Below, in pieces: positions 32,830-63,760 of a DNA stretch of 64,000 bases (its first letter is position 1; each line of letters opens with the position of its first letter). The notes beneath the pieces were generated by a model that saw nothing but the letters and a program-made list of their open reading frames with translations, made no database searches and was not told the DNA's origin. The translations under genes and the position numbers were made by a program. Where the stretch lies: positions 8,050-72,049 of the forward strand of contig CAZOWM010000002.1 in assembly GCA_964583615.1 (NCBI GenBank), given 5' to 3'. This DNA comes from an uncultured Spirochaetota bacterium. GTDB lineage: Bacteria; Spirochaetota; B62-G9; DRHN01.

Positions 32830-33831
32830 ATGCAGCCATTACGAAACGCAATTATCGGGCTCGGCAGAATCGGAAGCACCCTCGAAGACGACCGACTGAG
32901 AGAAAAACCGTGTACGCACGCTGGCGCGGTCTCCCTGAGCCCTGACTGCATCCTTGTCGGCGGATGCGACATCGACAAACAAAAGAGAGAACGGTTCAAA
33001 AAGCGGTGGGGGTGCGAATCCGCATACCCCTCCATCGACGAGCTTCTCAAAAAAACCCGCCCCCACATCCTCCACATCGCAACACCGCCGGACACCCACC
33101 TCCACATGGTCGAAAAGGCTTTACAGCACGACGTTTCCGTGTGCATCTGTGAGAAACCGCTTGCAGCAACGCTCGCTGATGCGAAAAGGATCGCGGAAAT
33201 CCACGAGTTCGGAAAAATAAAGGTCCTCACAAACCACGAGCGCAGATACTCCGCAGACTACGTGCGGGCAGAGACTCTTGTCTCAAAAAAAACGCTCGGG
33301 CCGCTTCGCGCGGTCACGGCAAAGATCTCCATGGAGAACGAACAGTGCCTTTCCGCCATGCTGTGGAACGACGGAACACATCTCATCGACATCATCCGGT
33401 ATCTCTGCTGCCCCCGTCTGGAGCCGGAGAAACTGATCGGCACTCTTGAAAGGCAAAACGAAACTGCGTACATCTTCGCCCGCTCGGGAAACGTCCCGGT
33501 GATCATCGAAGCGGGAGGAGGGCGTGACCACTACGTGTTCGAGCTCGACATCGGGCTCGCCTCAGGGAGGATCAGAATCGGAAACGGGCTCTACGAGGAA
33601 TACAGAAGTGAAAAAAGCCTTTTCTACGAGGGGTTCAACTCTTTGAAACAGATGAAAATAAAGTGCAAAGACCCGAAGCAGTGGCCGTGCGGCCCCACAG
33701 GGTTTTTCTCGCTCATGCTCGAGGACGCGGTGTTGTGCGCCAGGCAAAACACCGAGCCTGTATCGAGCGCAAAGGACGGATTTCTGGCTCTCCGGTTTAT
33801 CGACAGAGTTTTTCATCTCCTGAAAAATTGA
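32830..33831 (+). CDS. Gfo/Idh/MocA family oxidoreductase
   Basis: N-terminal Rossmann IIGLGRIGS. Layout is typical of the family, and it has the family's EKP motif (ICEKPLA). Confidence 0.8.
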   Translation: MQPLRNAIIGLGRIGSTLEDDRLREKPCTHAGAVSLSPDCILVGGCDIDKQKRERFKKRWGCESAYPSIDELLKKTRPHILHIATPPDTHLHMVEKALQHDVSVCICEKPLAATLADAKRIAEIHEFGKIKVLTNHERRYSADYVRAETLVSKKTLGPLRAVTAKISMENEQCLSAMLWNDGTHLIDIIRYLCCPRLEPEKLIGTLERQNETAYIFARSGNVPVIIEAGGGRDHYVFELDIGLASGRIRIGNGLYEEYRSEKSLFYEGFNSLKQMKIKCKDPKQWPCGPTGFFSLMLEDAVLCARQNTEPVSSAKDGFLALRFIDRVFHLLKN

Positions 33832-33926
33832 AAAATAAAAAAAATGCGTTAGATTTATCAATTGCCTTTGAAACTTGCGCTCTTCATGTCTTACACTTTA
33901 TGAAGAGAGATAACGGAAGGGGATAT

Positions 33927-36900
33927 ATGCGCACTTTACCTGTAACGGTATTTCTGCTCTTTGGTCTCCTCGTAGGCATCAGCTCCTGCTTCATGGTCCG
34001 GGAAGATCTCTACGACGCACATAACGGCTCAGGCTCACAGGGAACCGGAGTTGACACTCCCGGAATCACTGTTGACATAGGAGACGGGCTCATCACAAAG
34101 GAAGATCTATCCCTTTCCGATACATTTACCGTTGTTCTGGACACCGAGCCCAGCGCAACAGTCACCATCGGCACAATACAGAGCCTTGATCCGGGCGAGG
34201 CGACGGTGTCGCCGTCGAGCCTCACCTTCACCACTGCAGACTGGGATATTCCCAAGGCCGTCACCGTCACTGGTGTGGACGACGCGATCACCGACGGAAT
34301 GCAGACCGCAGTCATAGACCTCGGCATAGCGTCAGGCGGCGACTACGAAGGTTTAGATCCGGGCGACGTGGTGGTGAGCAACCTCGACGACGAGGTTTCA
34401 TCCTCACCGGCAGTGATCGTTCTCACTGGAGACGGCCTTATCACCGCGGAGCACCCGACAGCGCCGCTTTCAGACACCTTTCAGGTCGTGCTGAACTCCC
34501 AGCCAACTGCAGACGTGTCCATCGGGACGATTTCGAGCACTGACATTTCTGAGGTCACCGTGAGCCCAGCGAGCATCACCTTCTCGACCGCAAACTGGGA
34601 CATACCGGTCACGGTCACCGTCACAGGGGTCGACGACCTCGAAAATGACGGGATGAAAACCGTGAACATCAACCTCGGAAGCACCACGAGCGCGGACGCG
34701 AACTGGGACGGTATGGTCCTTGCGCCTGTGTCGGTGCACAACCTTGACAACGACGCGCCCAAGGGAATTTCCGTCATTGCAGGGTCCCAGCTCATAGTGT
34801 CAGAAAGCGGTGCGGAGTGCTGGTTTGAAGTGGTGCTCGATTCAGCGCCTTCGGCGCAGGTGGACATCCCCGTCACCTTACCCGATTCGACGGAGGGAAC
34901 GATCACCTCTCCTGCAGCAGGAATACTGAGCTTCATTGCTGGAAACTGGGACACTGCCCAGACCGTGATCGTCACCGGCGTGGACGACTACGAGGCCGAC
35001 GGAAACACGAGCTTCAGTGTTGTGCTCGGCGCTGCAGTCTCAGCGGACACGGACTACAGCGGCATGGACCCCTCGGACGTGGCGTTTTTGAATATCGACA
35101 ATGAGACGCCCGGGATCACCGTGTACGCAGGCTCGTCAATGCTTGTGTCGGAAAACGGGAGCAGCACGTTTTTCGAGATCGTGCTCAACTCCGAGCCGTC
35201 TTCAACCGTCACGGTCAATGTTTCTTCCACCGACACGGGTGAGGGAACGGTGGCACCGACCGTGCTCAGCTTCATTGCTGGAAACTGGGACACTGCCCAG
35301 ACGCTTTCAGTGAGCGGTGTGGATGACCCCGCAGCGGATTGGAACAAGACATTTTTTATCGACATTACCACTTCCTCGGCGGATTCGGACTACAACGGGC
35401 TCACACAAAGCGTGGAATTCACGTGTGTTGACGACGATTTTCCAGGCATGACGGTGAGCGCGGGAACGAGGATGCTCGTGACGGAAACAGGCGGGGCAAG
35501 CGAGTTCGACGTGGTGCTCAACTCCGAGCCTTCCGATACAGTGACGGTAACCATCTCTTCGTCGAACACTCTTGAAGGAGACGTGACCGCAGGCGCCTCA
35601 CTCACGTTTATCGCAGCAAACTGGAGCGCGCCACAGACCGTCACCGTCACAGGGATCGACGACCACATTGCTGACGGAAACATCAATTTTACTGTCAGCT
35701 GTGTATCCTCTTCGCCTGCCGCTGATTACGACGGCCTGACGAAAAATATCGCTTTCACCAATATAGACGACAACACCCCCGGCGTGACCGTGAACGCAGG
35801 CTCCAGAATGATCGTCACGGAAAGCGGAATTTACTCAGAATTTATGGTAGTGCTCAACTCTGAGCCGCTTGACGATGTTGAGATATGCATTTCGAGCGAT
35901 ACGCCTGCAGAGGGGCTTGTGACCATACCCGCAGGAGGTGTTTTGACCTTTACGAGCACGGACTGGTTCATTGCTCAGTCTGTCACGGTCACCGGACAGG
36001 ACGATGCCGCGGTTGACGGAAACCAGAACTTTAGAATTAATTTCTCTGCAACATCTCTCCTTGATCCTGCATACGACGGGATTGTGATTCCTGACGTGGA
36101 CTTTTTGAACATTGACGACGACTCAACCGTCACAAAGACCATCACCGTTGTGGCAGGCTCCTCGACCCTCGTGTCAGAAAACGGGGGCGAGAGCAGTTTC
36201 CAGATCGTTTTGAGCTCCGCCCCCACAGACGACGTGACGATCCACGTGTCATCAAGCGACACGACAGAGGGGCAGGTCACAGACCCGCCCACAGGCGACG
36301 TGATATTCACTCCCATAGACTGGACGCCGAAGACGGTCACGGTCACAGGACAGGACGACGATCTTTATGATGGAAATGTGACCTTTCAGGTGAATCTCGT
36401 CAACGCCTCTTCACTCGACGGTGACTACAACGGCCTTTCACCGTCGCCGAACATCCTTGATTTCGAGTGCGTGGACGACGAGACGCCGGGCATCACGGTG
36501 AGCGCAGGCTCCTCGCTTCTCGTCTCTGAGAGCGACGCTGTTACAGGAGGTTCCTGCTCTTTCGAGGTGGTGCTGAACTCGGAGCCCACAGACGACGTGA
36601 CCATAAACGTTCACTCTGGCGACACGACCGAGGGCGACATTCTTTCAGGCACTACACTTACGTTTACCGATACAGACTGGAACATGCCCCAGACTGTCAC
36701 CGTGGCGGGCGTCGACGACTTTCTCGTGGACGGAAACCAGGGCTTCAGCATTGTGCTCGACTCTGACATTTTAACCGCTGATCCGTATTACAACGGGCTC
36801 GACCCGGACGACGTGTCATTCACCTGCGTAGACGACGACGCGCCCGGAATCACGGTCGACATCGGAGACGGCCTCTTCACCGCGGAGGACCCGGTGACTC

Positions 36901-38285
36901 CGCTCACAGACACCTTCAAGATAATGCTTAACTCTCAGCCAACTGACTCCGTTGTCATCGACATCACGAGCACGGACACGAACGAGGTCGACGTGAGTCC
37001 GGCGAGCATCACTTTCCTGACCACAAACTGGAGCACATCGCAGACCATCACCGTGACTGGTGTGGATGACTGGCTTGTTGACAGCGTGAACCCAAAAACC
37101 ATCGAGATCAAGCTCGGACCCGCATCGAGCGCGGACACGGATTACGACACTATGCTTATCGACTCCGTGTACGTGCACAACCTCGACGATGAAATACCAC
37201 CCGAAGTGCTCATACTCGGCCCGTCAAACGAATTCATCACCACAGATCTCGTGACCACGGAAAACGGCGGCACTTCGGAGTTCAAAGTGATTTTGAACTC
37301 CGCACCCACAGCTGACGTTGACATCACCATTTCGAGCAGCCTTCCGAGCGAGGGCACGCTCATTCCTGCGGATCCGCTCACCCTCACCTTCACCCCCTCG
37401 GACTGGAACGTGGCGCAGAGAATTACGATCGCAGGTGTGGACGACATGGTGCCGGACACAGAACAGTTTTACACCATCGACCTGGGCAGCACTGCAAGCG
37501 CAGACCCCTTCTGGGACATGATCCCTGCGGGAAGCGTCAGCGTGGTGAACAAGCCTCTTATCACCATGCTCGACTACGGCTGGTCGTCGGCCGTTGCAGC
37601 AGAACCGTTCACCAGCATCGGTCCTTCAGGAACCGGAACAGGCACTCCCCTGAGCTTCGTGGACACCGACCCGCTCGATCTGTACCCGCCCGAGGACGAG
37701 GGCTACCAGTTCGTGGATATCGGGTTTCCATTCTACTACATGGGGATGCGCCACACGCGCGTCGTGGTGTACACAAACGGGTACATGATCTTTTCCCCCT
37801 ACCCCAACACCATAAATGTGTATGTGAACGGTATTCTCTTCGCGGACAAGCTGGACCCGACCGACGGCGAATACGCAATCGGCTTCGAAAACGCGATTGC
37901 GCCCTGGTGGGACGACTTAAACGTAGGAGACGCGGGAAGCGGCGTGTACTTTGAAAGAAGCGGCCTGGTGGGAAACAGGGTGCTCACCATAGAGTGGGAA
38001 AACGCGCGGTATAATACGGGAAACGATATATTCAACTTTCAACTAAAGCTCTACGAGGCAGACTATTCCATAGAGTTCATCTACGGGACATCTGTAAACG
38101 GGTCGGGGAATGCCTCCGCGTGCATGGGAATACGAGACGACGTGGGAGGAGTTGACCGCACCATCGACGCCTTCAACGGCAACAGAACAACAGTGACGAG
38201 CAGCCCGTTCACCTCAGCGGACAGGGGCACGGGCGACTATCCCGTAGCCGACACAATAATACAGTTTCTGCCGATGATCTATTGA
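33927..38285 (+). CDS. giant surface lipoprotein with ~10 tandem Calx-beta-like repeats and C-terminal NIDO-like domain
   Basis: Start is ATG 33927, with GGAAGGGGA 4 nt upstream. Signal peptide with a lipobox-like LVGISSC. About ten 110-115-aa repeats of pattern PGITV.AGS.LVSE.G...F.VVLNSEP.D.V.I.VSS.DT.EG.V....LTFT..NW...QTVTVTG.DD...DGN..F.V.L....SAD.DY.GL. The C-terminal ~250 aa carry YMIFSPYP...IAPWWDDLNVGDAGSGVYFE, reminiscent of the NIDO domain motif (APFWADvD...G.VYY). Confidence 0.7.
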   Translation: MRTLPVTVFLLFGLLVGISSCFMVREDLYDAHNGSGSQGTGVDTPGITVDIGDGLITKEDLSLSDTFTVVLDTEPSATVTIGTIQSLDPGEATVSPSSLTFTTADWDIPKAVTVTGVDDAITDGMQTAVIDLGIASGGDYEGLDPGDVVVSNLDDEVSSSPAVIVLTGDGLITAEHPTAPLSDTFQVVLNSQPTADVSIGTISSTDISEVTVSPASITFSTANWDIPVTVTVTGVDDLENDGMKTVNINLGSTTSADANWDGMVLAPVSVHNLDNDAPKGISVIAGSQLIVSESGAECWFEVVLDSAPSAQVDIPVTLPDSTEGTITSPAAGILSFIAGNWDTAQTVIVTGVDDYEADGNTSFSVVLGAAVSADTDYSGMDPSDVAFLNIDNETPGITVYAGSSMLVSENGSSTFFEIVLNSEPSSTVTVNVSSTDTGEGTVAPTVLSFIAGNWDTAQTLSVSGVDDPAADWNKTFFIDITTSSADSDYNGLTQSVEFTCVDDDFPGMTVSAGTRMLVTETGGASEFDVVLNSEPSDTVTVTISSSNTLEGDVTAGASLTFIAANWSAPQTVTVTGIDDHIADGNINFTVSCVSSSPAADYDGLTKNIAFTNIDDNTPGVTVNAGSRMIVTESGIYSEFMVVLNSEPLDDVEICISSDTPAEGLVTIPAGGVLTFTSTDWFIAQSVTVTGQDDAAVDGNQNFRINFSATSLLDPAYDGIVIPDVDFLNIDDDSTVTKTITVVAGSSTLVSENGGESSFQIVLSSAPTDDVTIHVSSSDTTEGQVTDPPTGDVIFTPIDWTPKTVTVTGQDDDLYDGNVTFQVNLVNASSLDGDYNGLSPSPNILDFECVDDETPGITVSAGSSLLVSESDAVTGGSCSFEVVLNSEPTDDVTINVHSGDTTEGDILSGTTLTFTDTDWNMPQTVTVAGVDDFLVDGNQGFSIVLDSDILTADPYYNGLDPDDVSFTCVDDDAPGITVDIGDGLFTAEDPVTPLTDTFKIMLNSQPTDSVVIDITSTDTNEVDVSPASITFLTTNWSTSQTITVTGVDDWLVDSVNPKTIEIKLGPASSADTDYDTMLIDSVYVHNLDDEIPPEVLILGPSNEFITTDLVTTENGGTSEFKVILNSAPTADVDITISSSLPSEGTLIPADPLTLTFTPSDWNVAQRITIAGVDDMVPDTEQFYTIDLGSTASADPFWDMIPAGSVSVVNKPLITMLDYGWSSAVAAEPFTSIGPSGTGTGTPLSFVDTDPLDLYPPEDEGYQFVDIGFPFYYMGMRHTRVVVYTNGYMIFSPYPNTINVYVNGILFADKLDPTDGEYAIGFENAIAPWWDDLNVGDAGSGVYFERSGLVGNRVLTIEWENARYNTGNDIFNFQLKLYEADYSIEFIYGTSVNGSGNASACMGIRDDVGGVDRTIDAFNGNRTTVTSSPFTSADRGTGDYPVADTIIQFLPMIY
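34060..37500 (+). repeat. intragenic tandem coding repeats (~340 bp unit), some copies near-identical at DNA level
   Basis: An exact 34-nt duplicate gcttcattgctggaaactgggacactgcccagac occurs at 34929-34962 and 35269-35302. Repeat units 1 and 9 and units 2 and 9 are highly similar at the protein level. Confidence 0.7.
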
Positions 38286-52618: not shown

Positions 52619-53911
52619 TCATGCCTGTGCGCACCACCGCGCCGCACACAGCGCAAAGATCCCGGTGAGCGCCAAAACGTCCTCAACCAGCACCCACTCG
52701 TCCGGAGCGTGGAGGTTTCCGCCTCTCGGGCCGAGAATGAGACAGGGCATTCGGCCCTCGTCCCCGTAGAGCGCGAGGTCGCAGGAAAATGGAGCGCCGC
52801 CGACCGTGGGGGGGTTCCCGGTATACTCCAGAAAACAGTCCACAACCTTCACGAGCGCAGGATCTTTCAAGTCGGTTTCCCACGGGCGCACGTAGTGGTA
52901 ATCAGGGCGGATCTCCAGGGCAAAGGGCGAAAGATCTTTGTCATCTTTCGCTTTTTCCTGCCAGAATTTCCGAAACCGTTTGTAAAAATCCTCCTCCGTT
53001 ATTCCCGGATGACACCACACGACCCAGGATATCTCTGTGAGAAGAGGTGTGCCCATCTGTGTGAACTCGCCTGGTTTGGTTGAATCGATTCGCCAGAGTA
53101 GCACGTTGAGCTCCTTTCCTTTCTGTTCGAACAGAGGATGGCTGTTTTGTCCTCTCCACAGATCCTGCCACTCTTGGAAATGCCGGATCGCCGCCGAGGC
53201 TCCGAAGATCGGGTTGGGGATTTCCTCCCCCATGTACGGCATTCCCGCTTTTCCGCTGAGAGTGAAATTCCCGAGAAACGCGCCGAGGCATGCGGGGCAA
53301 ACCTCCATCCGGGTCGGTTCCGTGAGGATCGCACAGTCCGCATTGTGCCCACGGATGCGCGAGGCAAGCGTCCCGTTTCCTCCCGCAAACTCCTCGTCGA
53401 CCACGCTCTCGAAGAGCACGTCCCCTTCAGGCTCAAACCCCATCTCTCTGAGGATCCTCAGCGCCCAGTAGGCAGCCGCGAGGCCTCCCTTTAGGTCCGC
53501 CGAGCCTCTTCCGTAGAGGCGCCCTTCTTTTATCACCGGGACGAAGGGCCTGCACACCTCCCAGCCGTCCGGTTCAAAGGGGGCCACGTCCATGTGCCCG
53601 CTGAAAAGAAGCGAGCGCCCGCCGCCTGCCCCTTTCCACGTTGCGACCACATCCGCCCTGCCTTCGTAGTTCCTGCCGGCGAGCCACGAAGGATGCTCAC
53701 CTATTCCGGGGATCTCGTCCGGCCTGAACACATCTGTTTCCCATCCAAGTTTTCTGCACTCCTCCTCGACAAACGCCTGCGCCTCTTTCTCGTTTCCGTT
53801 GGGCGGCCTGTTTTCTGAGGGAAAGCGCACGAGTTTTTTTGTCCACTCGATGATCTCGGACTTCCGCTTCTCAACCTCTGCCCTGAGCGCTTCTGCGGTT
53901 ATTGCCCTCAT
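52619..53911 (-). CDS. M20-family metallopeptidase (ArgE/DapE/ACY1-like)
   Basis: GHMDVAP and GRGSADLKGG metal-binding motifs, and a DEEFAGGNG acidic motif. Start set to MRAITAEAL so it abuts the upstream gene. Confidence 0.8.
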   Translation of the reverse strand: MRAITAEALRAEVEKRKSEIIEWTKKLVRFPSENRPPNGNEKEAQAFVEEECRKLGWETDVFRPDEIPGIGEHPSWLAGRNYEGRADVVATWKGAGGGRSLLFSGHMDVAPFEPDGWEVCRPFVPVIKEGRLYGRGSADLKGGLAAAYWALRILREMGFEPEGDVLFESVVDEEFAGGNGTLASRIRGHNADCAILTEPTRMEVCPACLGAFLGNFTLSGKAGMPYMGEEIPNPIFGASAAIRHFQEWQDLWRGQNSHPLFEQKGKELNVLLWRIDSTKPGEFTQMGTPLLTEISWVVWCHPGITEEDFYKRFRKFWQEKAKDDKDLSPFALEIRPDYHYVRPWETDLKDPALVKVVDCFLEYTGNPPTVGGAPFSCDLALYGDEGRMPCLILGPRGGNLHAPDEWVLVEDVLALTGIFALCAARWCAQA

Positions 53912-55074
53912 AAAACGATCACCTCTCGCCTGTAGCTCGTGAGCTCTCTTATGCCTCTGTCTGTCACCAGCACCCCGTCCTCGAACCTGAGACCGAGGCT
54001 CCCGTCGGAAAGCCAAATATCGATGTTGAACAGCATGTTCTTCTCTATTACGAAATCGGCCGCTTTTGCGAGCCACAGCCCCTCGACCTCTGAGTGTCCG
54101 GTGCCGTGCGCAGGGCCGTAAAGGGTAAAGTTTTCAAACCCGTAGCGTGCAAGGATCTCGTAGTACCCGTCGAACACTTCGGATGCGCGCACCCCGGGCT
54201 TTATCGCGTTCAGGGCGTAGTGCACCGCCTCGAGTGCAACATCCATGAGCGTGCGCGCATTTTTTGGTATGCCGCCAATGCAGAACGGCCTGCACATATT
54301 CCCGCAGAACCCCATATACTTCGCGCCGAAGGTGAACTGCACGAGCTCGTCTTGGCCGATCGCCCTGTCCGTCGACCTGCAGAGGCTGAGACGCGTGTTC
54401 GGGCCCGAGCACACCCATGCAGGATAGGGCATTCCCTCTGCACCCTGCGCGAGCATTGTCGAACGGGCACCAGCCTCGAGCTCCCACTCTCTCTTACCCG
54501 GTGCAGCCTCTGCAAAGGCAGCCTTCATCGCCTCCTCAGTGATGCGGTAGGCTTCGACGATGTAAGGAACTTCCTCTTCCGACTTTACCGCCTGAGCCCT
54601 CAGCACGATGTCATCAGCCGGAACAAACTCCGCATCCGGCGCGGCTGAGCGGATATCCTCGAAAATCACGTGGGGAAAAATATTCCAGTTCGCTATACCG
54701 ATCCGTTTCGGTACTTTCCCGCACGCCTCCGGCAGTATCTTCTTGAAACTCTCGCCTGTGACCTCCGGAACCCAGTCCGGCGCAGACGTCTCTACAAAAA
54801 GAGGGTTTATCCTGATTTCAGGTACCCGTGAAAACTCATTCGCAAATTCAAAAGACTCCGGCCCACCTGTGACGAGGACCGCCTTTCCTTCTGCAGGAAC
54901 GATCACCCCGGAAAAATCGAAAAAGGGCCAAAAGCCGGTAAAAAAACGGGACGTTGCGGATTCACACTCACTGCTGTACCCGACGAGCACATCGAGCCCC
55001 TCTTTTTTCAACTCCACCTGAAGCTTCTTTACCCTGTCTGTGTACACCGTTTCTGGGAGCGGTTTCAATCTCAT
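53908..55074 (-). CDS. M24-family Xaa-Pro aminopeptidase/creatinase-like peptidase
   Basis: 388 aa. Creatinase-like N-domain and pita-bread C-domain, with a conserved histidine (HGTGHSEVEG). Confidence 0.8.
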   Translation of the reverse strand: MRLKPLPETVYTDRVKKLQVELKKEGLDVLVGYSSECESATSRFFTGFWPFFDFSGVIVPAEGKAVLVTGGPESFEFANEFSRVPEIRINPLFVETSAPDWVPEVTGESFKKILPEACGKVPKRIGIANWNIFPHVIFEDIRSAAPDAEFVPADDIVLRAQAVKSEEEVPYIVEAYRITEEAMKAAFAEAAPGKREWELEAGARSTMLAQGAEGMPYPAWVCSGPNTRLSLCRSTDRAIGQDELVQFTFGAKYMGFCGNMCRPFCIGGIPKNARTLMDVALEAVHYALNAIKPGVRASEVFDGYYEILARYGFENFTLYGPAHGTGHSEVEGLWLAKAADFVIEKNMLFNIDIWLSDGSLGLRFEDGVLVTDRGIRELTSYRREVIVL

Positions 55075-56757: not shown

Positions 56758-56997
56758 TCAGCGTTCCTGTATGAGCTCCTCTTCCTGTCTTTGGACCTTC
56801 TTTTTTTTCTTTCTGTACCCGATGCTTCTCACGACAAATCCCAGACCGATACCTACGACAAACACGATCAGAATCATGACTGCCCTCTGTATGGATACGG
56901 ACCACGCGAGAAAGCTTACTTCAACCACTTCAACGTTTTGCACCATGAACACGATGACGATGATACCGATAATGATCCCGATGATGAATTTTCCCAT
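56758..56997 (-). CDS. small membrane protein, LapA/DUF1049-like
   Basis: 79 aa. Two hydrophobic segments separated by NVEVVEVSFLAW, and a Lys-rich tail. Confidence 0.5.
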   Translation of the reverse strand: MGKFIIGIIIGIIVIVFMVQNVEVVEVSFLAWSVSIQRAVMILIVFVVGIGLGFVVRSIGYRKKKKKVQRQEEELIQER

Positions 56998-57271
56998 GGT
57001 ACCCTCCTTGGATTTTCAAGTTATTGGTATATTGTACCTTATATTCCAGGAATTCAAAAGGGAAAAAGATTTAAAGGCACGTGTGCGCAAGGTTCGAAAA
57101 CCCGCGAACAGGCAACAAAACCGTCTGTTTGTCATTTTTTTTCATCTTCATTTCACTTGATATTTTTTACTTTTTCTGTCATCTTCTCTACAATTCGTTG
57201 ATCCCGAACACGGCACTCTTCGTCATATGAGGAAAAAATGAACAAATGAATTCTCCATCCCAAAGAGCGGT

Positions 57272-58396
57272 ATGGTTTCGATGAATGACATAGAACATAC
57301 TTTTCCCATTCCAGATTCAGAAAACGGTCAGGGCAACACTCTCCTCGACGGGGCGCTTTCCGACACTACAGAGATTCTCACTGACACTGAAAGCCAGAAA
57401 AAAATCGCCGCTTCACCTGAGTATCCTCTCGAAAAGCGTCTGGAGGCCTATGAGGACATATTCGAGTCTCAGGTCGGGGACACCGCGCTGAACAGGGCAC
57501 GCAATATAGAGCGCGAGATCGGCCTCCGTCAGATTTTTTTGAAGTTCGAAGGAGGTAACCCGACCGGAACCCAGAAGGACCGCATTGCATTCGCCCAGGC
57601 AATGGACGCGCTCCGGAGGGGATTCGATGCGATTACTGTGGCCACCTGCGGCAATTACGGCGTTGCGGTGGCACTCGCAGCATATCTTGCGGGCCTGCGC
57701 TGCTTTATATACATTCCCGAAACCTATCATACCAGTCGCGTTTCGGAAATCGAGAAGCTCGGCGCCCGGATCATCCGGGTTTCGGGAGACTACGAGCACG
57801 CAGTAAGCGTATCGCAGCAGACGGCTTCTGAAGAAGAAATCTACGACGCAAATCCCGGGGGAGAAAACACAGCCATTCAGCTCAGTGCCTACGGTGAAAT
57901 CGCATATGAGATATACGATATGCTCCGCGACGCTCCGGCAGCAGTGTCGGTGCCCGTGTCGAACGGCACCACCTGCGCGGGTATACACAGAGGGTTCCTC
58001 AGTCTGTACAGGCGGGGAAAGACATCGCGCATTCCGAAAATCATCGCAGGGTCTGCATTCAGAAAAAATCCCATCGTACAGGCGTATCTGAAAAACCTGC
58101 CTATGTGTGAAGATCTCAGATCAGAGCAAATACAGGAAACGAAGGTTAACGAACCCCTCATTAACTGGCACTCCATTGACGGTGACCACGCACTGGCCGC
58201 GATCCGCTCCTCAGACGGATTTGCGGCGTACGTTTCGGACAGGAACATGACGTACTATGCGCGAATCATCAGAGGGCAGGAGGGGATGAACGTGCTTCCT
58301 GCGTCCACCGCAGGACTCATCGCGCTCGTGAGCGCACACAAAGCAACCCCCCTTTCAAACGACCGGTATGTCGCGATCATCACTGGGAGAAAATAA
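57272..58396 (+). CDS. fold-type II PLP-dependent enzyme, threonine synthase-like
   Basis: LKFEGGNPTGTQKDR is the PLP-lysine motif of the ThrC/CysK family, closest to ThrC-type NPTGSFKDR. Gly-rich loop GNYGVAVALAA. Has a ~70-aa N-terminal extension. Its stop overlaps the next start (TAATG). Confidence 0.75.
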   Translation: MVSMNDIEHTFPIPDSENGQGNTLLDGALSDTTEILTDTESQKKIAASPEYPLEKRLEAYEDIFESQVGDTALNRARNIEREIGLRQIFLKFEGGNPTGTQKDRIAFAQAMDALRRGFDAITVATCGNYGVAVALAAYLAGLRCFIYIPETYHTSRVSEIEKLGARIIRVSGDYEHAVSVSQQTASEEEIYDANPGGENTAIQLSAYGEIAYEIYDMLRDAPAAVSVPVSNGTTCAGIHRGFLSLYRRGKTSRIPKIIAGSAFRKNPIVQAYLKNLPMCEDLRSEQIQETKVNEPLINWHSIDGDHALAAIRSSDGFAAYVSDRNMTYYARIIRGQEGMNVLPASTAGLIALVSAHKATPLSNDRYVAIITGRK

Positions 58397-60975
58397 TGAC
58401 TGAGTTTCCCGAGGGGAACGCCGTCGTGTACTGTGAGGGGGCGTTTCACACCACCAACGGAAAGACCGCGCACGGGCTCGTCCGAAGAACCAGGCGCTAC
58501 AGGGTGCTCTCGGTCATCGACTCACGGCAAAGCGGGAAGGACGCGGGAGCTGTGCTCGACGGGAAAAGAGCAGGGATTCCGATCTACCGCGGTGTAGAAG
58601 AAGCCGTGCGGAAGGCGCACGACGCAGGAACCGATGCCACTCATTTTGTCGTTGGGCTCGCTCCTGACGGTGGGCGGCTGAGCGCACGGGGACGTGATGA
58701 TGTGAAAAAGGCAATACGACTCGGCCTCAATGTGGACTGCGGGCTTCACGACATCCTCTCTGACGACAAAGAGATCGCTGACCTCGCACAAGAGCACGGG
58801 GTGAAAATTCGCGACGTGAGAAAACCTCCGCCCAGAGGTGAGCTTCACTTTTTTTGCGGAAAAATCGAGGAAGTGGATTCTCTGAAAATCGCAGTGCTCG
58901 GCACTGACTCTGCAATCGGAAAGCGGACAACAGCATGGATGCTTGCGGATGCGTTTGAAACTGCAGGGCTTGCCGTAGAGGTTGTGGGCACGGGCCAGAC
59001 CGCGTGGATGCAGGGAGTACGCTACGGTTTGATCCTCGATTCGTTGGTTTCAGACTTCGTCACGGGCGAGATTGAGCATGCGGTGTGGCTGGCGTGGAAG
59101 GAAAAAAAGCCCGATGTCATCATCATCGAAGGGCAGGGCAGCCTGCTCAACCCGGCCTACCCGGGCGGGCTCGAAATCCTCTCCGCCGGCCGCCCGGATG
59201 CAGTCGTGCTCCAGCATGCGCCCGCAAGAAAAATATACGACGGCTTTCCAGGCTATGCGCTTCACCCACTCCGCACGCAGATACGGGCAATCGAATCAGT
59301 TTCGGAAATTCGAATTGCCGCAATCACCGTGAACCACGAAGGGCTCGACAAAGCATCGATTCTCGACGCGAGCCGCCTGATTTCAATGGAGACAGGGCTT
59401 CCCGCGGTCGACGTGCTCGTGCACGGTGCAGCGGGGCTCCTTTCCCACCTCACACGGTTTCGCAACCGTGTGCATAGAAAGTATCTCGGCGCTCTCCAAC
59501 AAAGATTTACCGAGCCGAACAACACACTCGAACACCTCGTCGCGTTCGACACTCTTGAAATTGGACCGGTCCGGATATACAACGACCGTTTCAAAGCTCC
59601 TTACTCGGTGGTAAAAAACGGGACGGTCGACACCTTTGAGCTCATCTACCGCTTCGAGGAACACGTGTTTGATCCCGACGACGATGGGTCGAAAAATCTC
59701 GCGCACATGATTGCCGCTCAGGCCGCGATGAACTATGCGCTGTTCTGCAATGAAATCGTGTTCCGCGGCCCCTACGACGAGCATGACAAGCGATTCCTCC
59801 GGGAAATGGCGGAAAACACTGCCCGCGAAATCTACGTGAAAAAGCTGCTTGAACCGAACCCCTTTGTTGTCAAAGGGTTTCCGCAGACACCTGTGATCAA
59901 GAAACAGTGGTATGCAGCGGCGGAGCTCGTGTTTCCCGACCAAAAGGCAAGCGCGCACACCGCGCAGTGGCGAACCCGCAAAAACCGCTACGGAGTCCTC
60001 CTCAGCGGCGGCAAGGAAAGCCTCCTCAGCTTCGGAATTTTGAATGAGATCGGGAATGAGACACATCCCCTGTTTGTCAACGAATCGGGCAGACACTGGT
60101 ACACCGCACTGAACAGCTACCGCTTTTTCAGAGACCACGTTCCCCGCACGGCACGCGTATGGACGAACTCCGACCGTCTGTTCACGTGGATGCTCGGGCA
60201 TCTACCCTTCGTGCGCCACGATTTCTTCACCCTGAGGGCAGATGACTACCCGATCCGTCTGTGGACAGTCGCGGTGTTTTTGTTCGGCGTGCTCCCTCTG
60301 CTGAAAAAACGCGGCATCTGCGCCGTCGTCATCGGAGACGAGTACGATACCACAATAACGGCTGATTTTCAAGGTATTCCAAACTACGACGGGCTTTTCG
60401 ATCAGAGCATCTTTTTCGACCGCGCGCTCACGGACTATTTTCAAAAGAAGGGGTGGAATCTGGTCCTTTTCTCTATTGTACGCTCACTCTCCGAGTTCCT
60501 CGTTCTCAGGATGCTTGCCCAACGCTACCCGCATCTTCAAAAAAACCAGCTCTCCTGCCACATGACACACATCGAAAAGGGGCGCGCAGTTCCATGCGGA
60601 AAGTGTGAAAAGTGTCACAGAATCGTTTCAATGCTCATCGCGCTCGGTGACGACCCCACACAATTCGGTTACACAGAAAAGCAGGTTAGAAACTGCCTCC
60701 AAGGCCTTGCACACACGCATCTCCACCAGGAATCTGCAGTAAGCGAACACACGCGGTACCTACTCTCGGAGATGAACCGGATCGAGGCGCAGGAAACCTT
60801 GAGCCCCCATCCTGAAATCGAGCATCTCCGTTTCGACAGCGAAAACTCACCTATAAACGCGGTTCCAAAAGAGATCAGAGAAAAAGTCATTGAGCTGCAG
60901 ATGAAACACGCATCAGGGGCATTGAAAAAAAAAGGCGGTTCGTGGGTCTCATTTGACCCGATTTCAGATACATGA
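58396..60975 (+). CDS. fusion protein: N-terminal DUF1611 domain + C-terminal PP-loop ATP pyrophosphatase-like domain with Cys cluster
   Basis: 859 aa. Residues ~1-350: DUF1611-like with a P-loop-like IAVLGTDSAIGKRTTA. Residues ~530-860: LLSGGKES PP-loop (SGGxDS variant) at nt 60004-60021, and a C-terminal SCHMTH...VPCGKCEKCHR Cys cluster reminiscent of the QueC/ExsB zinc site. Confidence 0.7.
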   Translation: MTEFPEGNAVVYCEGAFHTTNGKTAHGLVRRTRRYRVLSVIDSRQSGKDAGAVLDGKRAGIPIYRGVEEAVRKAHDAGTDATHFVVGLAPDGGRLSARGRDDVKKAIRLGLNVDCGLHDILSDDKEIADLAQEHGVKIRDVRKPPPRGELHFFCGKIEEVDSLKIAVLGTDSAIGKRTTAWMLADAFETAGLAVEVVGTGQTAWMQGVRYGLILDSLVSDFVTGEIEHAVWLAWKEKKPDVIIIEGQGSLLNPAYPGGLEILSAGRPDAVVLQHAPARKIYDGFPGYALHPLRTQIRAIESVSEIRIAAITVNHEGLDKASILDASRLISMETGLPAVDVLVHGAAGLLSHLTRFRNRVHRKYLGALQQRFTEPNNTLEHLVAFDTLEIGPVRIYNDRFKAPYSVVKNGTVDTFELIYRFEEHVFDPDDDGSKNLAHMIAAQAAMNYALFCNEIVFRGPYDEHDKRFLREMAENTAREIYVKKLLEPNPFVVKGFPQTPVIKKQWYAAAELVFPDQKASAHTAQWRTRKNRYGVLLSGGKESLLSFGILNEIGNETHPLFVNESGRHWYTALNSYRFFRDHVPRTARVWTNSDRLFTWMLGHLPFVRHDFFTLRADDYPIRLWTVAVFLFGVLPLLKKRGICAVVIGDEYDTTITADFQGIPNYDGLFDQSIFFDRALTDYFQKKGWNLVLFSIVRSLSEFLVLRMLAQRYPHLQKNQLSCHMTHIEKGRAVPCGKCEKCHRIVSMLIALGDDPTQFGYTEKQVRNCLQGLAHTHLHQESAVSEHTRYLLSEMNRIEAQETLSPHPEIEHLRFDSENSPINAVPKEIREKVIELQMKHASGALKKKGGSWVSFDPISDT

Positions 60976-60987
60976 GGAGGAGCTTGA

Positions 60988-61788
60988 ATGACCGAACACG
61001 TTCGAAAAAAGCAGCATATCCTCGGAGAGCTCACATGGCCTGAGGCAAAAAAACATTTTAAACAGATCGATCTCGCGCTCCTTCCCGTGGGCTCCACGGA
61101 GCAGCACGGCCCGCACCTGCCGCTCGACACAGACGCATTCGACGCGGATTACCTCGCGCGCTCTGTTGCCTCCTCTTTTTCAGATCCCAAGCCGGTCGTT
61201 CTGCCGTTGATTCCCTACGGCGTCTCGTACCACCACATGGATTTCAGCGGAACCCTCAGTATCACGAACGAAACCCTCACCCGGCTCGTCTATGAGGTGG
61301 GGATGAGCGCTGCACAGCACGGAATAAAAAAACTCATCATCATCAACGGCCACGGCGGAAACACACCTTCTCTGAAAAACGCAGCGCAGATGATCAACAG
61401 AGACGCCCGCATTTTCACCTGCGTCGATACCGGAGAAACGAGCGATATCGACATCAGCAGAATAATCGAAACGCGGAACGACGCACATGCAGGTGAAATC
61501 GAAACGAGCACCGCGCTTGCAACACGCCCTCATCTCGTGGACGTGGAAAAGGCAAAAAAGTTTGTTCCGAATTTTTCCAGCAGATACCTAGATTTCAGCT
61601 CGAGCAGGAGTGTGGAGTGGTTCACACGGACGGAACTGATTTCCACCAGCGGCGTGCTGGGTGACCCGACAAAAGCGAGCAGGGAAAAAGGAGAGCGGAT
61701 CTGGCAGATCATGACCGAGCAACTGGTTCGTTTCGTTGCAGAGCTCATGAACATGACACTCGACGAGATCTACGAAAAACGGTACTGA
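60988..61788 (+). CDS. creatininase-family amidohydrolase
   Basis: LPVGSTEQHGPHLPLDTD and INGHGGN motifs of the creatinine amidohydrolase/ArfB/MftE family. GGAGGAG RBS. Confidence 0.8.
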   Translation: MTEHVRKKQHILGELTWPEAKKHFKQIDLALLPVGSTEQHGPHLPLDTDAFDADYLARSVASSFSDPKPVVLPLIPYGVSYHHMDFSGTLSITNETLTRLVYEVGMSAAQHGIKKLIIINGHGGNTPSLKNAAQMINRDARIFTCVDTGETSDIDISRIIETRNDAHAGEIETSTALATRPHLVDVEKAKKFVPNFSSRYLDFSSSRSVEWFTRTELISTSGVLGDPTKASREKGERIWQIMTEQLVRFVAELMNMTLDEIYEKRY

Positions 61789-61790
61789 CC

Positions 61791-62852
61791 ATGAAGATCA
61801 CTGCTATCGATACATGGGCAGAGCATATGGCACTCGAGGAGCCCTACCAGATCGCCTACGAGCGTGTGGAATCCGCAACAAACGTGTTCATGCGCATGGA
61901 GACGAACGCAGGCATTACTGGCTGCGGGTGCGCGGCACCTGACCGGCATGTCACCAAAGAGAGCGCTGATTCCGTTTTATCCGTAGTACAAAACATCGCG
62001 GCACCATATTTGAAAGGAAAAGACCCTCTTCGCTACTCCCTTCACCTCGAACGGCTGAAGCGATTTCTGAAAGGCCATCCTTCAGCGCTCGCGTGCATCG
62101 ACATGGCGCTTTACGACATCCTGGGAAAGGTCTGCGGGATGCCGCTGTGGAAGCTTCTCGGCGGATTTCGCACCCGCATCAAAACGAGCATCACCATCGG
62201 CATCATCCCTGTCACTGATACTGTAGCACGGGCAAAGGAGTACGTCTCTCAGGGGTTTTCCGCCATCAAGCTCAAGGGAGGGCTCAATCTTGATGAGGAC
62301 GTCCAAAAGGTGGCCGGTGTGAGAGAGGCGGTGGGGGGGAAAATCGAACTCAGGTTCGATGCAAATCAGGGCTACACGGTTGATGAAGCGGTGCGGTTTG
62401 TGAAAAAGACCGCCCCATTTCGCATTGAGCTCATCGAGCAGCCGACGCCTGCCGGTAACGCGCACCTGCTTGGAAAAATCTCCCGAAGCGTTCCCATCCC
62501 TGTGATGGCGGACGAAAGCGTTCACAGTTTACGGGATGCGTTCCGCCTCGCGCGCGGCGATCTCATCGACATGGTAAACATCAAGCTGATGAAGGTGGGC
62601 GGCATACACGAGGCGCTGATGATCAATGCAGTCTCACGCTCTGCCGGGCTCGAGGTAATGGTCGGGTGCATGGACGAGGCTGCGCTCGGTATCGCAGCAG
62701 GGCTTCATTTTGCCCTCGCACGCCCGAATGTGCTCTACGCGGATCTCGACGGGTTTCTCGGCCTGAAAAACGATTCCACAAGAAATGCAGTGATCCTCAA
62801 GAAAGGGACGCTCTATGCATCAAACGCGCCCGGCCTCGGTTTCGAGCTGTGA
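61791..62852 (+). CDS. enolase-superfamily dipeptide epimerase (L-Ala-D/L-Glu epimerase-like, MLE subgroup)
   Basis: KxK motif (SAIKLKGG), metal ligands in RFDANQGY and IEQP, and the second catalytic Lys region VNIKLMKVGG. 353 aa. Confidence 0.8.
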   Translation: MKITAIDTWAEHMALEEPYQIAYERVESATNVFMRMETNAGITGCGCAAPDRHVTKESADSVLSVVQNIAAPYLKGKDPLRYSLHLERLKRFLKGHPSALACIDMALYDILGKVCGMPLWKLLGGFRTRIKTSITIGIIPVTDTVARAKEYVSQGFSAIKLKGGLNLDEDVQKVAGVREAVGGKIELRFDANQGYTVDEAVRFVKKTAPFRIELIEQPTPAGNAHLLGKISRSVPIPVMADESVHSLRDAFRLARGDLIDMVNIKLMKVGGIHEALMINAVSRSAGLEVMVGCMDEAALGIAAGLHFALARPNVLYADLDGFLGLKNDSTRNAVILKKGTLYASNAPGLGFEL

Positions 62853-62881: not shown

Positions 62882-63760
62882 CTACACTTCCACACCGAGG
62901 AACAGGCGTATCAGAAAGCCGATGAAGAAACTGATAACCGCCACACCCAGACTGAGAGACGCCATCTCAACGAATCTCTTTTTGAATGAGTAGTCCTTTG
63001 CCACTGATATGTAGTAGTTGAAAAAGAATATGATACACACCGCGATGCAGAGGGTCACGCCCAGGCTCACCATGTACCTGCTGAAAAAGAGATAGGGAAG
63101 AATGAGCAGCATAACGGTCACGATATAGGCGATGCCGGTGTAAAAGGACGACTTTAGCGCCAGATCTGCTTTTCCCTCGGACTTTGTGGAGAGGTACTCC
63201 GAAGTGGCCATGGAAAGGGAAGCGGCGATTCCGGTGATGAGCCCTGCGAGTGCGATAAGCCTGGTGTCCCTGAGCGCGAGGGAGAGTCCTGCAAGAGCAC
63301 CGGTCAGCTCCACCAGCGCATCGTTGAGGCCCAGCACGATTGAGCCGACGTAGTTCAAACGCTCCTCATCGATGAGACTGATCAGCTCCTTTTCGTGGTT
63401 GTTTTCGTCATCCACGATCTTCTGCGCCTCGGGTATAGAGGCGGTGATTTCCGCATAGTTTATCTGTGCCTGCTCTTCTCCCCGCTCCATGAGCTTGATC
63501 CCGAAGGTGAGGCCGAAGATCCTTGCCACCCAGAAAAAAAAGAATATCTTCCAGCGGTTCGGTTTCACCTCTTTTCCCGTGTGCGTGCGCCAGAATTCAT
63601 AGTGCCGGTGTTCGTCTTCTGCGATACGGCGGAGTACTTCGCTGTTTTTTTTCTTTTTGATGGATTCTGAAAGTCTCGAGTAGATGTGGTACTCCGTAAT
63701 TTCGCTTTTCTGCGAACGGAGAATATGTGCGCGGATCTGTTCCGAAAGTTGAGCATGCAT
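62882..63760 (-). CDS. VIT1/CCC1-family iron/manganese transporter with N-terminal ferritin-like region
   Basis: ExxH-type N-terminal region (EDEHRHYEFW), then a VIT membrane domain (SIVLGLNDALVELTGALAG). Start set to internal MHAQLSE. Confidence 0.7.
   Translation of the reverse strand: MHAQLSEQIRAHILRSQKSEITEYHIYSRLSESIKKKKNSEVLRRIAEDEHRHYEFWRTHTGKEVKPNRWKIFFFFWVARIFGLTFGIKLMERGEEQAQINYAEITASIPEAQKIVDDENNHEKELISLIDEERLNYVGSIVLGLNDALVELTGALAGLSLALRDTRLIALAGLITGIAASLSMATSEYLSTKSEGKADLALKSSFYTGIAYIVTVMLLILPYLFFSRYMVSLGVTLCIAVCIIFFFNYYISVAKDYSFKKRFVEMASLSLGVAVISFFIGFLIRLFLGVEV

Follow-up and report, generated by a model that had tools for sequence, protein, structure and literature searches.

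What is made, altered or broken down by the products of four genes that follow one another on the forward strand, at positions 57272-62852, in a 64,000-nucleotide (nt) stretch of contig CAZOWM010000002.1 from an uncultured Spirochaetota bacterium? Do these genes act as one unit, is that unit found elsewhere, and how closely do the enzymes resemble relatives of assigned function? Throughout, the window means the whole 64,000-nt stretch and the operon the four genes, A to D, which encode five modules: an enzyme dependent on pyridoxal phosphate (PLP) with a PALP domain (A), a DUF1611 domain and a PP-loop domain that we call X (the two halves of B), a creatininase-type hydrolase (C) and a dipeptide epimerase (D). 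The cluster is real, strongly conserved and apparently uncharacterised, and it joins known enzyme superfamilies to one unnamed PP-loop family. We put forward tentatively, as a reading that falls a little short of probable, that the four genes are one co-translated unit and belong to a conserved pathway of five modules, in which a small molecule derived from an amino acid is made or edited by way of a dipeptide-like intermediate.

The four open reading frames (ORFs) lie at the coordinates given in a preliminary description of this DNA: A at 57272-58396 (374 amino acids), B at 58396-60975 (859), C at 60988-61788 (266) and D at 61791-62852 (353). Their Pfam domains are PALP; DUF1611_N and DUF1611; Creatininase; and MR_MLE_N with MR_MLE_C. 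The enzyme classes assigned earlier are right, although the count of four modules is not, since the PP-loop domain forms a separate family and brings the number to five. The stop codon of A (TAA, 58394-58396) and the start codon of B (ATG, 58396-58398) share one nucleotide, the TAATG overlap already reported. The gaps between B and C and between C and D, reported as 13 and 3 nt, measure 12 and 2 nt. Direct reading of the sequence places a Shine-Dalgarno-like GGAGGAG (60976-60982, + strand) inside the 12-nt gap, before gene C. Upstream of gene A are 274 nt of non-coding DNA (56998-57271), in which a consensus scan gives a candidate sigma-70-like promoter, TTTACT-17-TACAAT (57166-57194, + strand, 9 of 12 matches); this is weak evidence, as the scanned region holds eight sites of that quality against 4.2 expected. 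On the other side, 29 nt past the stop codon of D, a VIT1/rubrerythrin gene in convergent orientation has its end at 62882.

The arrangement is not peculiar to this organism. At least 562 species genomes encode relatives of X, as found when one genome was scanned for each species with an alignment of the X domain as query, and 80 loci were kept. The cluster is found in at least ten bacterial phyla. Its carriers include Spirochaetota, which are closest to the window, Desulfobacterales (among them the cultured Desulfosarcina widdelii and D. variabilis), Acidobacteriota, Gemmatimonadota, Ignavibacteria, Calditrichota, Zixibacteria, Phycisphaerae, KSB1 and others. In tblastn searches with the window proteins PALP, DUF1611, X, creatininase and epimerase lie on one strand nearly everywhere, with identities of 50-79%. 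Module content was counted in the 56 species loci with enough flanking sequence on both sides, and 50 of these carry all five modules in the same order and on the same strand. Two lack both DUF1611 and the epimerase, two have PALP-DUF1611-X only, one lacks the epimerase only and one the creatininase only. The preliminary description had proposed a search for conserved neighbours, and the genes do remain neighbours across at least ten phyla.

The junctions are conserved as well. PALP and DUF1611 genes overlap by 4 nt or 1 nt in 45 of 48 loci, and creatininase and epimerase genes are separated by 15 nt or less, or overlap by 1-4 nt, in 48 of 60. Fusions were counted in 74 loci. X is joined to the creatininase in 64 of them, while DUF1611 is a separate gene in 67. 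The DUF1611-X fusion of the window is confined to seven, namely six Spirochaetota-type loci closest to the window and one other (L069). The X family, defined by homology search over a stretch of about 480 residues, accordingly takes three forms: alone (about 500 residues), as the N-terminal half of proteins of about 790 residues named 'creatininase family', which is the commonest, and behind DUF1611. A functional link between the modules is shown by the order and the overlaps, both conserved, and by the two kinds of gene fusion. The earlier view of the four genes as a tightly coupled single unit is upheld by these overlaps and by the order and neighbours kept across the phyla.

Within the 56 bacterial loci the epimerase never occurs without DUF1611, and the two are both present or both absent in 52. 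Two loci with full flanks (L055 and L084) have X-creatininase without DUF1611 or epimerase, and L057, with a short upstream flank, is alike. L045 has X-creatininase with no PALP gene upstream, and another divergent contig has DUF1611-X-epimerase without a creatininase. A search of 1.84 billion representative proteins gave 590 matches to the X family at E<=0.001 and only 151 at E<=1e-30; the family is compact. A divergent branch belongs to archaea (Thermoplasma volcanium GSS1, Ferroplasma, Acidiplasma and Cuniculiplasma), and its proteins go under the names 'metal-binding protein' and 'hypothetical'. T. volcanium and Thermoplasmatales-like metagenome contigs carry a three-gene unit, PALP (about 316 residues)-DUF1611-X, without creatininase or epimerase. 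The distribution suggests that PALP and X are a near-constant pair, with DUF1611 together with the epimerase, and the creatininase, as bacterial additions.

Gene D (61791-62852, + strand; PF02746 and PF13378) encodes an enolase-superfamily protein of 353 residues. Its best PDB matches are 1jpm, the Bacillus subtilis L-Ala-D/L-Glu epimerase YkfB (E=3.4e-68), and the dipeptide epimerases 3rit and 3jva, all at about 231-233 bits. In YkfB, K162 and K268 are the catalytic lysines (PMC5808125). Residues D321 and D323 of YkfB bind the dipeptide at its alpha-ammonium group and Arg24 binds the side-chain carboxylate of glutamate. Residues K160/K162, K265, D190, E216, D241 and D318/D320 of gene D align with K160/K162, K268, D191, E219, D244 and D321/D323 of YkfB. 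The first six of these (K160, K162, D190, E216, D241 and K265) are invariant in all 61 family members, and so is the DxD motif D318-L-D320 (62742-62750, + strand). Gene D shares with YkfB, Escherichia coli YcjG and other dipeptide epimerases (PDB 1jpm/1tkk, 3rit and 3jva) the KxK motif, the second lysine, the three residues that bind metal and the DxD clamp for the ammonium group. YkfB differs in having Arg24 where gene D has glutamate, and the genomic partners of gene D are not murein hydrolases. Across the 61 members the Arg24 position is occupied by Glu in 55, Gln in five and Gly in one. Gene D is, by its residues, a dipeptide-type epimerase with a full catalytic set and a need for a free N-terminal amine. 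With DxD kept and Arg24 replaced, it is predicted to take a dipeptide with a free amine and a non-acidic C-terminal side chain. A GCMDE motif is common to gene D and the Methylococcus enzyme 3rit, the corresponding sequence in YkfB being GSMIE; 3rit is reported to prefer cationic dipeptides. Gene D misses both NCBIfam models for L-Ala-D/L-Glu epimerases (NF041118, 228 bits against a cut-off of 500; NF011708, 103 against 343) and that for the racemase DgcA (NF042940, 161.9 against 400).

The partner on which gene D depends in the bacterial loci, DUF1611, makes up residues 1-360 of gene B (58396-59475, + strand; PF17396 and PF07755), with a Rossmann-like N-terminal domain and a P-loop domain (GTDSAIGKRTT). 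Its sequence matches the Thermotoga structure 2g0t best (E=4.5e-40), also 2obn and, more weakly, 7xrj, which we take to be DgcN. Full-text literature searches aimed at DUF1611 found no paper giving it a function. The preliminary description had likewise treated the domain as without assigned function, a view that no longer wholly holds, as NCBIfam has a characterised member in DgcN, a DUF1611 N-acetyltransferase working with the enolase-superfamily racemase DgcA in D-glutamate catabolism. Against the DgcN model (NF041892) the domain in gene B scores 147.5 bits, so far below the cut-off of 480 that it should be regarded as a paralogue and not as DgcN itself. The acetyl donor of DgcN is reported to be acetyl-CoA.

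The remainder of gene B, domain X (residues 361-859; 59476-60975, + strand), has 499 residues, including an extra N-terminal domain and a C-terminal extension. It has no significant Pfam match, the sole listing being DUF6395 at E=0.0082, below the cut-off, and PF06508 gives no match even at E up to 10. A PP-loop motif, SGGKES, was found by pattern matching at X residues 177-182 (B residues 537-542; 60004-60021, + strand); its S, G, G, K and final S are invariant in 36 aligned homologues, and relatives have SGGKDS. A structure model with a predicted local distance difference test (pLDDT) score of 90.2 superposes on QueC, and its best structural matches are QueC, Cap9 and QatC, about 180 of the 499 residues superposing. 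The model and the motif identify X as a PP-loop ATP pyrophosphatase of the QueC fold, and the earlier PP-loop call for this otherwise unannotated half of gene B was well founded.

Does X share the substrate of QueC? QueC, Cap9 and QatC are PP-loop enzymes of PF06508 that adenylate 7-carboxy-7-deazaguanine and form an amide. The substrate motifs of QueC are YxQxHxxE, VPxRN and YPDC and its zinc motif is C-x8-C-x2-C-x2-C (PMC13329287). The SGGxDS PP-loop signature of QueC is present in X as SGGKES, and none of the three substrate motifs occurs in X. A probable zinc site is formed by a four-cysteine ribbon, CH-x11-C-x2-C-x2-C (X residues 361-380; 60556-60615, + strand), in which C361, H362, C374, C377 and C380 are invariant in the X-family alignment; the spacing of the cysteines is C-x12-C-x2-C-x2-C and not that of QueC. 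Further invariant motifs of the family are NESGRHW and ENTAREIY. Because the substrate motifs are absent and the cysteine spacing differs, X shares the fold of QueC and presumably its adenylation chemistry, with a different substrate.

The only NCBIfam model that X matches is MurL (NF041275), which finds the window protein and four of ten divergent members scanned. The match in the window protein (E=2.9e-6, 26 bits against a cut-off of 700) covers residues 668-744, about 80 residues around the cysteine ribbon. In a divergent member of 457 residues (P0258, locus L089) the MurL model matches over 225 residues (E=7e-10). MurL requires Mg and ATP and releases AMP; the proposed reaction is adenylation of a C-terminal glutamate at its alpha-carboxylate, and those who discovered the enzyme recognised no known domain in its sequence (PMC5808125, PMC8788868). 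The conversion of ATP to AMP fits a PP-loop fold, and the sequence match suggests that MurL, too, is a PP-loop ATPase and a relative of X and QueC. X differs in its length of about 500 residues with an extra N-terminal domain, in its fusion to creatininase or DUF1611, and in having no MurD2 partner; no Mur-ligase gene lies beside the cluster in the loci inspected.

Gene C (60988-61788, + strand) encodes a creatininase-family metal amidohydrolase of 266 residues (PF02633, E=1.3e-72; 244.5 bits against a gathering threshold of 31.3). The motifs EQHG, LDTD, GHGGN and HAGEIE are present, of which the first, third and fourth presumably hold the metal ligands. The best-scoring named model is that of MftE (TIGR03964), the peptidase of mycofactocin maturation, where gene C falls just under the cut-off (163.8 bits against 172); against the creatininase model (TIGR04448) it scores 114.5 bits and the cut-off is 235. 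MftE and creatininase share the Pfam family and the motifs with gene C, whereas neither is fused to a PP-loop ATPase, as relatives of gene C usually are. No MftA, MftB or MftC gene is found around the cluster. MftE cuts next to a 3-amino-2-pyrrolidinone, and creatininase opens the five-membered ring of creatinine.

Gene A (57272-58396, + strand; PF00291, E=2.5e-51) belongs to the fold-type II PLP enzymes and, among them, to the threonine-synthase lineage. With 425 bits it passes the NCBIfam model PRK06381 (NF004996), named 'threonine synthase', whose cut-off is 266; it fails TIGR00260, the equivalog for thrC (90 bits against 167), and is below the cut-off in each of PRK05638, PRK08197, PRK06450 and PRK08329. 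The PRK06381 model has 319 positions, about the size of the archaeal members. The PLP lysine, K102 in GTQKDR (an xxKDR motif), aligns with K61 of Thermus thermophilus ThrC and is invariant in 73 of 73 family members. In the T. thermophilus structure T88, N154, S155, R160 and N188 of ThrC are reported to hold the phosphate of O-phosphohomoserine. In the alignment K61, N154 and N188 are kept, with T88 changed to Tyr, S155 to Pro and R160 to Gln. Within the 73 members the S155 position is always Pro, the R160 position is Gln in 72 and His in one, and the T88 position is Tyr in 63, Phe in nine and His in one. Of six ThrC residues reported to touch the phosphate of the substrate, gene A would then lack three, and for that reason the name 'threonine synthase' is doubtful. 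Many homologues carry the same label from the Joint Genome Institute (JGI), and the best solved relatives are threonine synthases. Given the three replacements, and a gene that always stands alongside DUF1611 and X, the naming by PRK06381 and JGI is probably a systematic misannotation.

How might five such modules work together? The best reading is that the pathway builds or edits a non-acidic amino acid or dipeptide by ATP-dependent activation of a carboxylate coupled to hydrolysis of an amide. Gene A would supply, or consume, a non-standard and probably non-acidic amino acid by PLP-dependent beta- or gamma-replacement. DUF1611 might acylate or aminoacylate the alpha-amine of that amino acid, by analogy with the acetylation of D-glutamate by DgcN, and gene D would set the C-alpha configuration of the C-terminal residue in the resulting dipeptide. 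X may then adenylate a carboxylate, converting ATP to AMP and pyrophosphate as proposed for MurL and described for the QueC family, which would drive formation of an amide, closure of a lactam ring or a MurL-like inversion. Finally gene C, joined to X in most species, could cleave an amide in or next to the ring of the product, MftE being its nearest characterised relative. Gene order, the two fusions and the dependence of the epimerase on DUF1611 all agree with this scheme.

Several points weigh against this pathway. Every chemical step is modelled on distant relatives, and DUF1611, X, C and D all lie below the curated cut-offs of their nearest named families. We know of no precedent for an aminoacyl-transfer role of DUF1611, and the phosphate-binding role of the ThrC residues is that reported for the T. 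thermophilus structure and not a computed result. The variants PALP-X-creatininase, DUF1611-X-epimerase and X-creatininase with no PALP nearby (L045) do without one or more of the steps. No transporter or regulator is consistently linked to the cluster, and so the pathway may serve biosynthesis or salvage. The preliminary description had spoken of a module for making, editing or salvaging a dipeptide containing a D-amino acid, or an amino-acid amide, with a murein-peptide derivative as the example. The linked unit and the enzyme classes agree with it; the murein example is not supported, given the replacement of Arg24 and the presence of the core in Thermoplasmatales. Its author also knew of no characterised pathway that combines these enzymes, and full-text literature searches aimed at the combination of families found no paper describing it.

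A more specific form of the proposed pathway is speculative, and we rate it as distinctly improbable. X and the creatininase-type enzyme would be a new pair, an ATP-driven lactam synthetase and a lactam-recognising peptidase. A basic amino acid made by the PLP enzyme would be capped with an aminoacyl group by DUF1611, epimerised as a dipeptide, cyclised on its own carboxylate by X and released by the MftE-like hydrolase as an amino-lactam or a related small cyclic metabolite. If true, this would be a route independent of the ribosome and of non-ribosomal peptide synthetases, with a removable aminoacyl 'handle', and gene transfer would have spread it among bacteria of anoxic sediments and Thermoplasmatales. 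It would give the X family and the non-DgcN branch of DUF1611 their first functions and place MurL in the PP-loop superfamily.

The strongest rival, although unlikely, is a salvage route that inverts stereochemistry, D to L or L to D, in the manner of DgcN-DgcA-DgcH. Here DUF1611 would N-acylate a D-amino acid, the enolase-superfamily enzyme would racemise the N-acyl derivative and the creatininase-type hydrolase would deacylate it; X would add a MurL-like, ATP-driven one-way epimerisation, and the PLP enzyme would degrade or convert the freed amino acid. The D-glutamate pathway of marine Proteobacteria and haloarchaea (NF041892, NF042940) resembles the cluster in placing DUF1611 beside an enolase-superfamily enzyme and an amidohydrolase. 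The nearest characterised relatives, DgcN for DUF1611, DgcA and L-Ala-D/L-Glu epimerase for gene D and MurL for X, all work in D/L chemistry (four modules on our count), and the presence of DUF1611 goes with that of the epimerase, and its absence likewise, in 52 of 56 loci. Most of the carriers are bacteria from sediments or Thermoplasmatales, to which D-amino acids from necromass may be available. Set against this, gene D keeps in 61 of 61 members the DxD motif of dipeptide enzymes, which binds a free alpha-ammonium group that an N-acetyl substrate does not have, and the scores are far from those of the Dgc proteins (162 against 400 bits for DgcA, 147 against 480 for DgcN). The archaea have DUF1611 and X with no racemase or hydrolase, the X-creatininase loci L055 and L084 (and L057, with its short flank) have neither DUF1611 nor epimerase, and no uptake system is conserved beside the cluster. 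The Dgc pathway reportedly has no PLP enzyme and no PP-loop ATPase, whereas the cluster has both.

Recycling of murein peptides, in which the epimerase would convert L-Ala-D-Glu from peptidoglycan turnover and the other enzymes would process the fragments, is very doubtful. It draws on the match of gene D to YkfB, which acts with YcjG in peptidoglycan recycling (PMC5808125). The residue that recognises the glutamate of that substrate, Arg24, is Glu or Gln in 60 of 61 members of the gene D family, both L-Ala-D/L-Glu epimerase models are missed by the margins given above, and the recurrent neighbours of the cluster include no murein endopeptidase, LD-carboxypeptidase or peptide transporter. Thermoplasmatales, which are wall-less and have no murein, carry the PALP-DUF1611-X core.

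We give equally little credence to the view that gene A is the plain threonine synthase of the organism and that its neighbours are unrelated housekeeping genes, adjacent by chance. The PRK06381 score, the JGI labels and the solved relatives speak for that view. Adjacency is, however, kept in 56 of 56 full-flank loci, in many phyla and in archaea, with stop and start codons overlapping; TIGR00260 is missed; R160, T88 and S155 of ThrC are replaced by invariant or nearly invariant residues; and no hom, thrA or thrB gene stands alongside in the loci inspected.

Least probable of all is maturation of a ribosomally synthesized and post-translationally modified peptide (RiPP) in the manner of mycofactocin, with gene C trimming the peptide, or a 7-deazaguanine system like those of QueC, Cap9 and QatC, with X attaching a deazapurine, for although gene C nearly reaches the MftE cut-off and QueC, Cap9 and QatC are the best structural matches of X, a precursor was rejected when no conserved small ORF was found within 600 nt of either cluster end in 80 loci (a scan of the ends and not of the gaps inside the cluster), no radical-SAM partner appears in the called-gene tables of the inspected loci or among the recurrent flank families, the QueC substrate motifs and PF06508 are unmatched, and no CBASS (cyclic-oligonucleotide-based antiphage signalling), Qat or tRNA-guanine transglycosylase genes lie nearby in the loci inspected.

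Can the surroundings of the five-module cluster name its ligand? A riboswitch or leader RNA that would do so was considered and rejected, as an Rfam search of the window and of six loci, drawn from six phyla, gave no match. Control by sigma-54 was also rejected: -24/-12 sites lie 5' of the PALP gene in three of 71 loci against about 1.8 expected. In 17-19 loci the cluster has a sigma-54 activator gene nearby. Four genes of the window, encoding the M20 deacylase, the M24 peptidase, the glycerate-2-kinase-like protein and VIT1, have no tblastn match in 87 loci and, not being conserved with the cluster, are rejected as members of the unit. The flanks of the loci hold no consistently linked transporter or regulator, and recurrent flank genes, none in more than about a tenth of the loci and several from related genomes, offer hints only.

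Polyamine genes (arginine decarboxylase, agmatinase-like and deoxyhypusine-synthase-like) lie within 10 kb in four to six loci from three phyla. Loci of this type are L005 (13626-22358, Desulfosarcina), L019, L024, L061, L075, L011 and L012, and the Desulfosarcina flank adds genes of the saccharopine-dehydrogenase and nitrilase (CN_hydrolase) families and an ABC transporter. The independent cases are too few for a link, but as a hint they agree with the acidic substrate pocket of the epimerase. In L032, L044, L068 and L084 a lysine-2,3-aminomutase-like radical-SAM gene, an ATP-grasp ligase and a GNAT-deacetylase fusion, a set that we class as a beta-lysine-type module, stand 3-5 kb from the cluster. 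Other flank genes are MscS, CorA, YitT and MFS, and scattered osmolyte-type neighbours are too few to count. A gene for a D-aminoacyl-tRNA deacylase (PF04414) lies within about 2.5 kb of the Thermoplasmatales core in L090 (6945-7700), where it is directly upstream on the same strand, and in L093 (13753-14523); both loci belong to a single taxonomic order, so that this placement may be plain synteny.

In the window itself, a LapA-like membrane ORF of 79 residues (56758-56997, - strand), divergent from the operon, borders the 274-nt stretch. The equivalent place in contigs of related Spirochaetota (7714-7959 in L002, for example) is taken by a LapA_dom gene with OmpA after it, so local synteny reaches slightly past the cluster. 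A GT4 glycosyltransferase gene and one for a protein of 496-498 residues without a Pfam match follow the cluster only in related Spirochaetota, in either orientation (L001 14631-17346, L002 14500-17222, L008, L009 and L011-L013), and are missing from the window. Elsewhere in the window the GTG start of the M20 (ArgE/DapE-like) ORF (52619-54076, - strand) overlaps the end of the M24 gene (53908-55074, - strand) by 169 nt; the true start is probably further in, the first 55 or so residues being rich in arginine and unmatched by any model. An ORF of 1540 residues (33663-38285, + strand), with a Calx-beta domain as its sole Pfam match, is probably a large surface protein.

If the five-module pathway is as we propose, it would be widespread and undescribed, present in at least 562 species genomes from at least ten bacterial phyla and in Thermoplasmatales, with Desulfosarcina widdelii, D. 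variabilis and Thermoplasma volcanium as cultured carriers. It would provide the first functional context for a PP-loop family of about 500 residues without a Pfam model, and would assign functions to the large branch of DUF1611 outside DgcN and to a ThrC paralogue now called 'threonine synthase', probably wrongly, in thousands of genomes. It would also supply a fold and an adenylation mechanism for MurL. The natural fusions point to enzymes that may act together, and the cluster is a well-defined target for the discovery of new amino-acid and dipeptide chemistry.

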